Virus genome (UHGV): UHGV-0091736
Length of the DNA stretch: 64,000 nucleotides
Direction: 5' to 3' (one strand)
Source: a virus
Shown here: one piece after another, positions 7,145 to 8,171 of the stretch
Layout: the number at the start of each line of letters is the position of its first letter
Position numbering within the stretch: the first letter of the stretch is position 1
The notes under the pieces: generated by a model
Databases searched by the model: none
What the model was told of the DNA's origin: nothing
What the model saw: the letters and a program-made list of their open reading frames with translations, nothing else
Program-made: the position numbers and the translations under genes

Positions 7145-7527
7145 TCTCCAGTGATTTCCATATCTGCTTTATCCCCTTTCTTGGTAAGGAGTATTGCTGG
7201 TTTATTCTTACTCTTCATATACTCAAACATGTGCATAGAACCTCTTGACTCTCCATCCCAAAAGATTACTACTGCATCTGCATATTCACCCATATCTACG
7301 TTCCGAAGTATCCCGGCCTTTTTGCCGAGAGTATTCCATGAAGGAATGAAACGTTTGATAGGTATATCATTATGCTTAGCAACGACTTCTCCGTGAAGGT
7401 CTGGACCTCTTGCACCACCTGACACAACTTCTGAAATCAGCTTGGGGATTTCCTCTGGAAGTAAAGCCCACATCTGAGTAAAAGAATGCCAGTCTATCGA
7501 CCGGCTTCCTGCGATTATTACTTTCAT
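7135..7527 (-). CDS. SLOG / DUF2493-like Rossmann-fold protein
   Basis: VIIAGSRS ... [10 protein letters not shown] ... GILRN ... [10 protein letters not shown] pattern. Confidence 0.45.
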
Positions 7528-8171
7528 GCAACCAACCCTTGAAACTCTTCTTTATCGAAGTGTTTTTCTACCACATATTCATACAGATCTTTTAACTCTG
7601 CATATCTGCGGTAGAATGTTCCGTGTGACATTCCAATGGTTTTCTGAATGTGATCATGGGGAATCCCCAAGAAGATCATTGAGAACATATTGGCTAACTT
7701 CTGAGTATCCATCGTATCACTTAAATCTTGGAAGAAGTAGAAGATACGGGACTCCATGAATGGGTCTCCAACAGAATCTTGCTTATCCATAGCAATCTCT
7801 AAAGGACTATCAACCATATCTGGAGTACGGAACATATCAGCCTCTGGAATAGAGTAGATACGACGGTCCCCCACAGTCTGCCTATTTGAACGTATAGACC
7901 AGATAATGTTCTTGACTCGATAAGTCATATGCTCTTGGTCTTTCTCATCCTCTAGGACTCTCTCATCCTGCTTAGCGAAGACAAATCTCCAAGCATTCAA
8001 GAGCACTTCCTGTGCCACATCTTCTGCTTCATGGTAATCTCTGATATCATACATGAAGAACTTGTGAACCACTTTCCAGTTCACCTTATAGAACTCTTCA
8101 TAGTTTGCGATATATTTAATAGGTATTCCATGAATTCGATATCTTGTAGGTGTTGTTTTCTTCGCCATCAT
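7524..8171 (-). CDS. Phage-encoded ECF-like sigma factor
   Basis: Region-2-like [13 protein letters not shown] and a C-terminal helix-turn-helix ([20 protein letters not shown]). Confidence 0.55.

Follow-up and report, generated by a model that had tools for sequence, protein, structure and literature searches.

The window, i.e. the whole stretch of 64 000 nt of viral DNA analysed here (UHGV-0091736), derives from a Kuravirus with ∼96% identity to phiEco32 and its relatives. A minus-strand gene encodes a protein in which the second ATG, at position 8168, is the counterpart of the annotated start of phiEco32 gp36 (Table 1). The protein shares 211 of 214 residues (99%) with phi32_36 and matches chain F of PDB 9m7y (E = 8e-145) and PHROG 1740 ‘RNA polymerase sigma factor’ (E = 8e-46). 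Residues contacting the −10 element (E79, H80, Y83, R84, W90, S91, S94 and N95), the −35 region (Y186 and R187) and the clamp helices (D44, E47, E49, D50 and E54) all lie within stretches identical to phiEco32 gp36. In structure 9M7Y, a linker joins the sigma-2-like N-terminal domain of gp36 to its sigma-4-like C-terminal domain (Xu 2025, PMC12276001), and this two-domain architecture is found here by way of the 99% identity to the solved chain (9m7y_F). Scores against curated sigma families are weak: 18.3 bits for Pfam Sigma70_r2 (cutoff 24), no match to r4, and 23.2 bits for NCBIfam TIGR02937 (cutoff 42.9), in an alignment that still covers model positions 3–157 of 165. An earlier note on this DNA, made from the letters alone, had placed the 215-aa ORF correctly and pointed to a phiEco32-type precedent, rightly so, the window being of phiEco32 type and the protein being gp36 at 99% identity. 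Its label ‘ECF-like’ holds for the two-domain architecture and fails at the curated Pfam and NCBIfam sigma/ECF thresholds. Apart from the weak family scores, nothing speaks for the view that the protein is no sigma factor and its motif no promoter but, e.g. the binding site of another regulator. The probability of this view is negligible, as it is refuted by published primer extension, in vitro transcription and 3.4-Å cryo-EM for the 99%-identical protein with the same promoter sequence (PMC8948821; PMC12276001). By homology, the ORF is the gp36 sigma factor of phiEco32, and nothing argues against this core identification.

Table 1. Features of the window related to gp36-dependent transcription, in order of position
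Feature	Position	Strand	Remarks
Sigma factor gene, phiEco32 gp36 ortholog	7524..8171	minus	215 aa
P40, published middle promoter, TAATGTATA	9989..9997	minus	ATG of gene-40 homolog 58 nt downstream; aligns with phiEco32 36632-36640; Table S3
Orphan gp36-type candidate promoter	10157..10187	plus	GGTAGTA 10157-10163 (−37 to −31) and TAATGTATA 10179-10187
Candidate non-coding RNA from orphan promoter	10194..10378	plus	3′ end uncertain
Candidate RNA, 5′ hairpin	10194..10210	plus	
Candidate RNA, variable middle module	10248..10275	plus	position of its stem
Candidate RNA, internal hairpin	10288..10302	plus	
Candidate RNA, long hairpin	10310..10375	either strand (fold)	A-run and T-rich tail on flanks; within a ∼105-nt block 100% identical to phiEco32
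P58, published middle promoter, TAATGTATA	16168..16176	minus	ATG 36 nt downstream; aligns with phiEco32 42937-42945; Table S3
P68, published middle promoter, AAATGTATA	21078..21086	minus	aligns with phiEco32 46862-46870; Table S3 ‘aAATGTATA’; Xu 2025
P68 −35-region box, GGTAGTAGATA	21098..21108	minus	its GGTA at −37 to −34; invariant in three genera
gp79 ortholog, sigma-70 holoenzyme inhibitor and gp36 holoenzyme co-activator	27789..28034	minus	tblastn, 82/82 aa identical to phi32_79
P6, published late promoter, TAATGTAGA	52083..52091	plus	aligns with phiEco32 1677-1685; Table S3 ‘TAATGTAgA’
Group I intron splitting terminase large-subunit gene	53249..54022	plus	exons 52646-53248 and 54023-54961; 774-bp insertion
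Intron copy of TAATGTATA, unpublished	53343..53351	plus	G at −37, A at −34
Intron HNH-type endonuclease ORF	53475..54014	plus	probable TTG start after SD AAGGAG 53462-53467; first possible start GTG 53436
Box TAAGACCTA of late promoter P13	60256..60264	plus	at −38 to −30; common to off-window P26
P13, published late promoter, TAATGTATA	60279..60287	plus	ATG 33 nt downstream; aligns with phiEco32 9101-9109; Table S3

The gp36 sigma factor and its tAATGTAtA promoters are already known and well studied, so the identification is correct but not new. The consensus tAATGTAtA comes from six experimentally identified phiEco32 promoters (P6, P13, P26, P40, P58 and P68), with transcription starts 6–9 bp downstream (Lavysh 2022, PMC8948821, text and Table S3), and is given for gp36-dependent promoters in the SU10 paper as well (PMC4281155). 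In the 3.4-Å cryo-EM open complex on P68 (PDB 9M7Y), gp36 reads AATGTA at −14 to −9; P68 activity requires −37G and −34A, contacted by R187/Y186, −11G is essential there too, and gp79 inhibits the sigma-70 holoenzyme and co-activates the gp36 holoenzyme (Xu 2025, PMC12276001). The steps of this mechanism are established in the literature for the 99%-identical phiEco32 protein (PMC12276001; PMC8948821) and, carried over from there, the ortholog in the window is predicted to direct core RNA polymerase to initiate at the window promoters. There, gp36 would replace sigma-70 on the host core enzyme. Its N-terminal sigma-2-like domain would read and melt the −10-like element tAATGTAtA (−15 to −7), so that transcription would start ∼7 bp downstream of the motif, and its C-terminal sigma-4-like domain would touch the −35 region. 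The gp79 encoded in the window would displace region 4 of sigma-70 and stabilise the C-terminal domain of gp36. Together, both proteins would turn transcription away from the early (sigma-70) genes and towards the middle and late ones.

Scanning of the whole window yields five exact copies of the 9-mer TAATGTATA (9989 and 16168, minus strand; 10179, 53343 and 60279, plus strand), the same five that the earlier note had listed. In 100 dinucleotide-preserving shuffles, the mean is 0.85 copies and the maximum four, and none reaches five. Copies with one mismatch are at chance level (26 versus 22.2 expected), so a copy carries signal only if it is exact or nearly so and its context is right. All five exact sites are located outside phage protein-coding DNA, being either intergenic or in an intron upstream of its ORF; the P13 site is flagged as coding in a crude ORF map because the ORF extends upstream of the phiEco32-annotated start. 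Three copies precede a start codon in the correct orientation, at 58 nt (9989), 36 nt (16168) and 33 nt (60279), in keeping with the 34–60 nt reported before. Also confirmed are the position of the 53343 copy, in an insertion splitting the terminase gene with an HNH ORF downstream, and the lack of an obvious gene after the 10179 copy, no plus-strand ORF of at least 25 aa being found downstream. The proposal that TAATGTATA is the cognate promoter stands for three copies, which are the published P40, P58 and P13, and the orphan and intron copies fall outside the published set. The list of five exact sites had missed P68 (AAATGTATA) and P6 (TAATGTAGA), each one base off TAATGTATA. A single-element promoter would be an incomplete description, as P68 also uses the −37G and −34A contacts.

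In all, five of the six published gp36 promoters (P6, P13, P40, P58 and P68) lie inside the window, at phiEco32-aligned positions, in the correct orientation and with motifs matching Table S3; P26 lies just outside. P6 directly follows a terminator hairpin, with an ATG (52103) 11 nt downstream. At P40 and P58, the upstream edge of the motif is exactly the point at which homology to phiEco32 is lost; these promoters thus do coincide with mosaic junctions. A near-motif upstream of the sigma gene, TAATGTTTA, was rejected as a gp36 site: it shares bases with a perfect TATAAT within the preceding gene, in agreement with a sigma-70 promoter predicted there in the literature (Lavysh 2022, PMC8948821). 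Repetition of the −10 element in inverted form further downstream was likewise rejected as a general feature of gp36 promoters: most sites have only 4–5-mers, seen in 55% of random segments, the exceptions being P40 (7-mer) and the intron copy (9-mer).

Earlier papers treat gp36 promoters as single-element, whereas the 2025 structure reveals essential −35 contacts at one promoter (Xu 2025, PMC12276001). In the window, a −10-like element is present at every gp36 site and the −35 box GGTAGTA only at P68 and the orphan. The box TAAGACCTA of P13 and P26 differs from GGTAGTA; it is invariant at both promoters in phiEco32, ECBP2 and EP335, with variable flanks, and occurs three times in the window versus 0.72 expected. 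P40, P58 and P6 are without any upstream box. Class-specific boxes, GGTAGTAGATA at P68 and the orphan and TAAGACCTA at the late promoters P13 and P26, bear on the question of single-element recognition and could have to do with the difference between middle and late timing.

The orphan copy at 10179 is built from the same two elements as P68, including the −37G/−34A and AATG contacts defined structurally at that promoter. Its counterpart in phiEco32 lies at 36682–36712. The exact −10 motif and GGTAGTA recur in all 20 Gordonclarkvirinae genomes examined, covering three genera, with a fixed spacing and with variable sequence between and around them. Table S3 (Lavysh 2022, PMC8948821) does not list the site with its six promoters; the apparent reason for its being overlooked is that only sites before genes were taken into promoter lists. 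Given both P68-type elements and their invariance in 20 relatives, the 10179 copy is very probably a seventh gp36 promoter. Beyond these genomes, the bipartite pattern GGTAGTA-N13-17-TAATGTATA was too permissive for searching IMG/VR and metagenomes, with only known isolates remaining among the matches listed after filtering of chance matches; an exact-match search of IMG/VR for the downstream box of the orphan retrieved phiEco32 and NJ01 only.

From this promoter, a non-coding RNA of ∼155–185 nt would probably be made, with a 5′ hairpin as a stabilising element at its start. This hairpin begins precisely with the predicted +1 (motif end + 7); 98.6% of its cells are paired, two of its six pairs show compensatory changes, and its covariation score exceeds those of 500/500 shuffles and of all slid registers. 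G–U pairs in the region favour the plus strand. The MFE is lower on this strand in 13/13 genomes, with fold z-scores similar on both strands. The internal hairpin is invariant, and the candidate RNA contains neither AUG nor GUG in the window sequence. Rfam gives no match for the orphan region and none at gathering threshold in the whole window. Base-pairing targets were sought in the sense transcripts of the window, where the longest match (11 nt) compares with 10–14 nt in shuffled controls. A literature search found no report of a transcript from the locus.

The 3′ side of the candidate RNA is more ambiguous. The long hairpin is a predicted strong intrinsic terminator for the minus-strand operon ending upstream of P40, and a T-run follows its stem on the minus strand only. 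On the plus strand just UAUUU/AAAA follows, so the hairpin would be at best a weak terminator in this direction and, for want of a proper U-tract, a discrete 3′ end is uncertain. Conservation of the 3′ block can be explained by its role as minus-strand terminator. The same lack of a U-tract, together with the AT-rich tract at 10376–10520, is compatible with a real promoter that makes no free-standing small RNA. The orphan points head-on into a minus-strand operon (phosphoesterase gene 10525–11028 and beyond), and its transcripts could read through as antisense RNA or interfere with the converging transcription. Alternatively, the promoter could serve to prime or activate DNA replication in this AT-rich tract, like the promoters at the primary origin of T7. 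Such functions are rather improbable in view of the 5′ hairpin supported by compensatory changes and the invariant hairpin at 10288–10302, which point rather to a stable structured RNA. Furthermore, the genes and sequence beyond the hairpin differ among relatives, which would leave an antisense target without conservation.

The second unpublished copy of the motif resides in the terminase gene. Pfam Terminase_6N and Terminase_6C match the two halves of this gene, and the joined exons encode 513 aa, collinear with the phiEco32 terminase, with LDEED/PYESM at the junction. Exon 1 ends in T and the insertion ends in G (...GAGGAT/TGTATA...CACG/CCATAT). Rfam RF00028 matches over its full length (1–253) with 45.0 bits (E = 5e-10), which falls short of the gathering score (50), and the 3′ core is ∼85% identical to td-type introns. 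By these signatures the insertion is a group I intron, its splicing being predicted; it was found in no other sequenced phage. The product of its ORF matches PHROG 1035 ‘endonuclease VII’ (E = 4e-20) and PHROG 2255 ‘HNH endonuclease’, and the HNH motif HVDHIIPL...N is visible in the translation. The copy of TAATGTATA is exact (9/9), on the sense strand, ∼115 nt upstream of the SD-preceded ORF, and absent from the six promoters of Table S3 (PMC8948821). In T4, intron-internal middle and late promoters precede endonuclease ORFs. [quoted passage not shown]

Neither unpublished copy need be a promoter. A perfect 9-bp inverted repeat (53342–53350/53363–53371), aligned by Rfam to the P6 region of the intron core, has the intron copy as its 5′ arm, and the copy could be simply part of an intron stem; a second HNH-bearing intron of the same genome has no such motif. 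It could also be a chance match, as ∼0.85 exact copies per window are expected. Similarly, the orphan could be a relic or a DNA-level element hitch-hiking beside P40 and the terminator, e.g. a recombination junction between gene modules, a view in line with the mosaic junctions at P40 and P58, and neither copy appears in Table S3. Nevertheless, this explanation is unlikely. For the orphan, both elements are kept exactly and at a fixed spacing in 20/20 genomes of three genera amid variable surroundings, and the hairpin at the predicted +1 changes by compensatory substitutions, as that of a relic would not. For the intron copy, chance occurrence on the sense strand of the non-coding intron part, with an ORF downstream and G−37/A−34, amounts by our own estimate to roughly ≤0.03 per window.

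Collectively, the gp36 system with its published promoters, supplemented by the inferred orphan and intron-copy steps, is the best explanation of the data, with a probability of about 0.93. Its main part brings nothing new in biology: a textbook-grade takeover of host RNA polymerase by a phage is identified once more from raw sequence, and finding the sigma factor again is a useful validation of a first reading made without databases. The orphan and intron copies are unreported candidates of possible interest to specialists. Every phiEco32-subgroup genome examined, the reference phage included, has a conserved unit made up of promoter and hairpin, which no gene follows. It is tempting to propose, at slightly less than even odds for the two parts jointly, that the orphan is a seventh, unreported gp36 promoter for a structured non-coding RNA of ∼155–185 nt in all phiEco32-subgroup phages, and that the intron copy is a captured gp36 promoter timing the HNH endonuclease. 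If transcribed, the orphan locus would provide a phage small RNA candidate that is under phage sigma control and can be tested directly; its RNA would be the first small RNA of the phiEco32-type group, made by a phage-encoded sigma factor. Likewise, the intron copy, if truly a promoter, would mean that a mobile group I intron has captured a gp36 promoter, in parallel to the T4 introns.

Comparison with known systems places these features in context. ECF (group 4) sigma factors share with gp36 the combination of sigma-2 and sigma-4 without sigma-3, reflected in the full-length but weak TIGR02937 alignment, and the gp36 linker threads the cleft like sigma-3.2 (Xu 2025, PMC12276001). Unlike them, the gp36-type protein scores below curated family thresholds, its first helix is rotated and its sigma-4-like domain more compact (Xu 2025, PMC12276001). 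Its promoters are dominated by one −10-like element, ECF promoters being of the −35/−10 type, and its known regulator is a phage co-activator, gp79, where ECF factors usually have a cognate anti-sigma factor. In Salmonella phage 7-11, gp47 is a distant phage sigma homolog that likewise brings host core RNA polymerase to promoters at similar genome positions. However, its late promoters have a different and clearly bipartite consensus (GTAAtg-N16-aCTA), and 7-11 lacks both a gp79 homolog and a middle class (Lavysh 2022, PMC8948821). In the first 50 kb of its genome, which cover the equivalent region, no opposite-strand orphan promoter was found. The T4 td, nrdD and nrdB introns (I-TevI/II/III) resemble the window intron in being group I introns in phage genes, with a homing-endonuclease ORF and a phage promoter motif inside. 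They differ in that the candidate promoter in the window would be of gp36 type and not of T4 gp55 or MotA type, and its motif sits in an intron stem ∼115 nt from the ORF and not beside an RBS-sequestering hairpin. Closest is the gp36/gp79/tAATGTAtA system of phiEco32, reportedly studied in Savalia 2008 and Pavlova 2012, in the latter of which the orphan site may already have been examined. Differences from phiEco32 concern the DNA upstream of P40 and P58 and the terminase gene, which in the window is interrupted by a group I intron bearing an HNH ORF and an extra exact copy of the motif. In other respects both are alike, with 99% identity of the sigma factor and 100% of gp79, motifs at the orthologous P6, P13, P40, P58 and P68, the same −35 box at P68, and the plus-strand orphan copy, which phiEco32 also carries, though outside its six published promoters.

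The product of the sigma factor ORF is identical at 211 of 214 positions to gp36, the sigma factor of Escherichia phage phiEco32, and, as far as sequence can tell, every testable criterion places it in the gp36 family. It matches PHROG 1740 and one solved chain (9M7Y_F, 'RNA polymerase ECF sigma factor'), and the region around the ORF is ~96% identical to phiEco32 and some 90 other Kuravirus-type coliphages. The phage partner and co-activator gp79 is also encoded, with 100% identity. [quoted passage not shown] Six gp36-dependent promoters were identified experimentally, with a single consensus element (tAATGTAtA) and transcription starting 6-9 bp downstream (Lavysh 2022, PMC8948821, citing Pavlova 2012). 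P6 (TAATGTAgA), P13 and P26 are late, P40, P58 and P68 (aAATGTATA) are middle (Lavysh 2022 Table S3, PMC8948821), and the SU10 genome paper agrees on gp36 promoters (PMC4281155). In the 3.4-Å cryo-EM open complex at P68, the gp36 N-terminal domain reads -14A, -13A, -12T and -11G, while its C-terminal domain touches -37G and -34A; mutating the contacted bases or the contacting residues abolishes activity, and gp79 displaces sigma-70 region 4 and stabilises the gp36 C-terminal domain (Xu 2025, PMC12276001). All gp36 contact residues lie within stretches identical in the window protein. Given this and the published biochemistry and structure, the observation in the earlier note of a 215-aa sigma factor with TAATGTATA as candidate cognate promoter is real and correctly interpreted, the phiEco32-type precedent that it names is accurate, and the system is already known in detail, down to atomic structure.

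The window holds five exact copies of TAATGTATA, at the positions that the note had listed; dinucleotide-preserving shuffles give a mean of 0.85 and never reach five. With one mismatch, 26 copies are observed against 22 expected, which is chance level, so that a copy is informative only if it is exact or nearly so and sits in the right context. Three copies, correctly oriented, precede start codons by 58, 36 and 33 nt and correspond to published P40, P58 and P13. The other two, an orphan copy with no gene behind it and a copy in the terminase intron, fall outside the published six, and the five-site set overlooked P68 and P6. P26 lies ~700 bp left of the first base of the window and is thus off-window. 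At P6 (window 52083-52105(+)), only ~4-5 nt separate the predicted start (motif end + 7) from ATG 52103, and the AGGAG Shine-Dalgarno sequence lies 5' of that start; a gene 6 mRNA initiated there would thus have almost no leader, unless translation begins at a start codon further downstream.

Features of the window and related elements discussed in the text
Feature	Position	Strand	Remarks
Sigma factor ORF	7524-8171	-	215 aa
gp79	27789-28034	-	100% identical to phiEco32 gp79
P40 (published)	9989-9997	-	TAATGTATA, aligned to phiEco32
P58 (published)	16168-16176	-	TAATGTATA, aligned to phiEco32
P13 (published)	60279-60287	+	TAATGTATA, aligned to phiEco32
P68 (published)	21078-21086	-	AAATGTATA; overlooked earlier
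P6 (published)	52083-52091	+	TAATGTAGA; overlooked earlier
Orphan copy	10179-10187	+	TAATGTATA; outside published six
Orphan -35 region	10157-10163	+	GGTAGTA, then TAATGTATA
Intron copy	53343-53351	+	TAATGTATA; outside published six
P68 upstream box	21098-21108	-	TTGGTAGTAGATA; invariant across three genera
P13 upstream box	60256-60264	+	TAAGACCTA; invariant across three genera
P26 upstream box	phiEco32 L002 ~25991-25999		TAAGACCTA; invariant across three genera
Second group I intron (RF00028)	insertion 24493-25112; Rfam match 24542-25162	-	in DNA primase/helicase gene
HNH_3 endonuclease ORF	24671-25006	-	111 aa; within primase/helicase intron

Upstream regions were compared between the window, phiEco32, ECBP2 (Suseptimavirus) and EP335 (Nieuwekanaalvirus), covering three genera. 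TTGGTAGTAGATA, at about -39 to -27, is common to P68 and the orphan and invariant, and its GGTA supplies the -37G and -34A of the P68 structure. Late promoters P13 and P26 share TAAGACCTA, invariant at -38 to -30 with variable flanks; no conserved upstream sequence is found in this comparison at P40, P58 or P6. TAAGACCTA occurs three times in the window (0.72 expected), one copy lying on the wrong strand inside a gene, so that its invariance across genera is stronger evidence than the count. These class-specific boxes may bear on middle versus late timing and on the conflict between 'single-element' promoters and structural -35 contacts. A TAAGACCTA box also directly adjoins a perfect TATAAT at 8235-8252(-) (…GTAAGACCTATAATGTTTA…), within the macro-domain gene that lies upstream of the sigma gene; the site is probably the sigma-70 promoter that the literature predicts for gene 36.

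Only the orphan promoter, together with its hairpin unit, appears new. P40 and the oppositely facing orphan elements share the gap that separates gene 40 from the next gene on the minus strand; no plus-strand ORF of at least 25 aa follows the orphan, in line with the earlier note, which saw no obvious downstream gene. The same arrangement exists in phiEco32 (36682-36712), and GGTAGTA and TAATGTATA are exact and at fixed spacing in 20 of 20 relatives examined from three genera, in differing surroundings. From the published geometry, transcription would start at 10194 (motif end + 7), the base with which a 6-7-bp hairpin opens in every genome examined. Its stem varies (AUAGCU/AGUUAU, AUAGCU/AGCUAU, AUAGUU/AACUAU, AUAGAU/UUCUAU, AGAGUUA/UAACUCU); in a 13-sequence alignment, 98.6% of cells are paired, two of six pairs change on both sides and a third alternates between G-C and G-U. 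At 0.246, the covariation score is higher than in any of 500 shuffles, and slid registers reach at most 0.038. We consider the orphan very likely a real gp36 promoter (probability about 0.75).

Downstream of this hairpin come a common UUGCA, one of two unrelated middle modules, an invariant hairpin (10288-10302), an A-run and a long hairpin (10310-10375); the final ~105-nt block is 100% identical to phiEco32. Whether a discrete functional non-coding RNA results, with a length of roughly 182 nt in this isolate and 156 nt in phiEco32, is close to an even bet. On the plus strand, two pairs of the long hairpin are invariantly G-U and another changes from A-U to G-U, and the locus folds 3-10 kcal/mol better in 13 of 13 genomes, though z-scores do not separate the strands. 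Since a T-run follows on the minus strand, the long hairpin is probably the terminator of the minus-strand operon ending before P40; the plus-strand tail is only UAUUU, which leaves the 3' end of a plus-strand RNA uncertain. The region has no Rfam match, the candidate RNA no significant complementarity to phage transcripts and the first 50 kb of the phage 7-11 genome, where the equivalent region lies, no equivalent, and no mention was found in the searchable literature. The promoter and hairpin unit is cheaply testable.

The intron copy lies, as claimed, in the terminase large-subunit gene before an HNH ORF. The gene carries a 774-bp insertion relative to phiEco32 (53249-54022), covered end to end by the Rfam group I intron model (45 bits, E = 5e-10; gathering score 50). 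The last base is T in exon 1 and G in the intron, and joining the exons gives a 513-aa terminase (junction LDEED|PYESM). The HNH-type endonuclease probably starts at TTG 53475, 3' of an AAGGAG Shine-Dalgarno sequence. None of 50,697 phage genome records covers >24% of the intron; its 3' core alone is similar to td-type introns and DNA-polymerase introns in other coliphages. The motif is on the sense strand, ~115 nt 5' of the HNH ORF, with G at -37 and A at -34, and a promoter is plausible because all three intron endonucleases of T4 are driven by intron-embedded middle or late promoters. Against this, ~0.85 copies per window are expected by chance, and the ~620-bp insertion that the primase/helicase gene has relative to phiEco32, a second HNH-bearing group I intron (48.6 bits, cutoff 50, E = 3e-11), contains no gp36-type motif. 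In addition, a perfect 9-bp inverted repeat, placed in the P6 region of the terminase intron by the Rfam alignment, has the motif as its 5' arm. The arguments for and against a functional promoter are evenly poised.

Aligned to the full phiEco32 record, the window begins at position 26709, within gene 26, and reaches ~10093; middle and early genes on the minus strand are followed by the genome termini (~50308-50482) and the late genes. As 50308-50482 matches both ends of the linear record (1-175 and 77363-77537), the window crosses the termini with a single terminal repeat, suggesting that the assembly is circularly collapsed or permuted. The match to phiEco32 breaks off precisely at the upstream border of the P40 motif (9998) and of the P58 motif (16177), so that these promoters fall on mosaic junctions between gene modules: upstream of P40 the DNA differs, with ~118 nt extra, and at P58 this isolate lacks the gene-59 homolog. 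The ~118-nt insert, which separates P40 from the orphan, contains a small GC-containing hairpin (ACTACC-GGAA-GGTAGT, 10014-10029) followed by T-rich sequence on the plus strand; its minus-strand form places GGTAG at -37 of P40 in this isolate, which phiEco32 P40 lacks. The PhoH-like protein (16188-17906(-)) has 572 aa versus 247 aa in phiEco32; the ~325 extra residues, inserted in frame at the P-loop (…PAG|CVDKDTEF … FVTGN|CGKT…), look like a candidate intein. Pfam recognises the PhoH part only (residues 386-569) and no intein or endonuclease domain. ARAGORN predicts a tRNA-Arg (anticodon TCT) at 40340-40416(-), likewise in phiEco32; it is absent from the whole-window Rfam scan at gathering threshold.

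Compared with ECF sigma factors, the window protein is alike in architecture only, and the description 'ECF-like' holds to that extent. Pfam Sigma70_r2 scores 18.3 bits (cutoff 24), no Pfam region-4 match is found, and NCBIfam TIGR02937 reaches 23.2 bits (cutoff 42.9), although its alignment is full-length. The published wording, 'distant homolog of sigma factors', is the accurate description.
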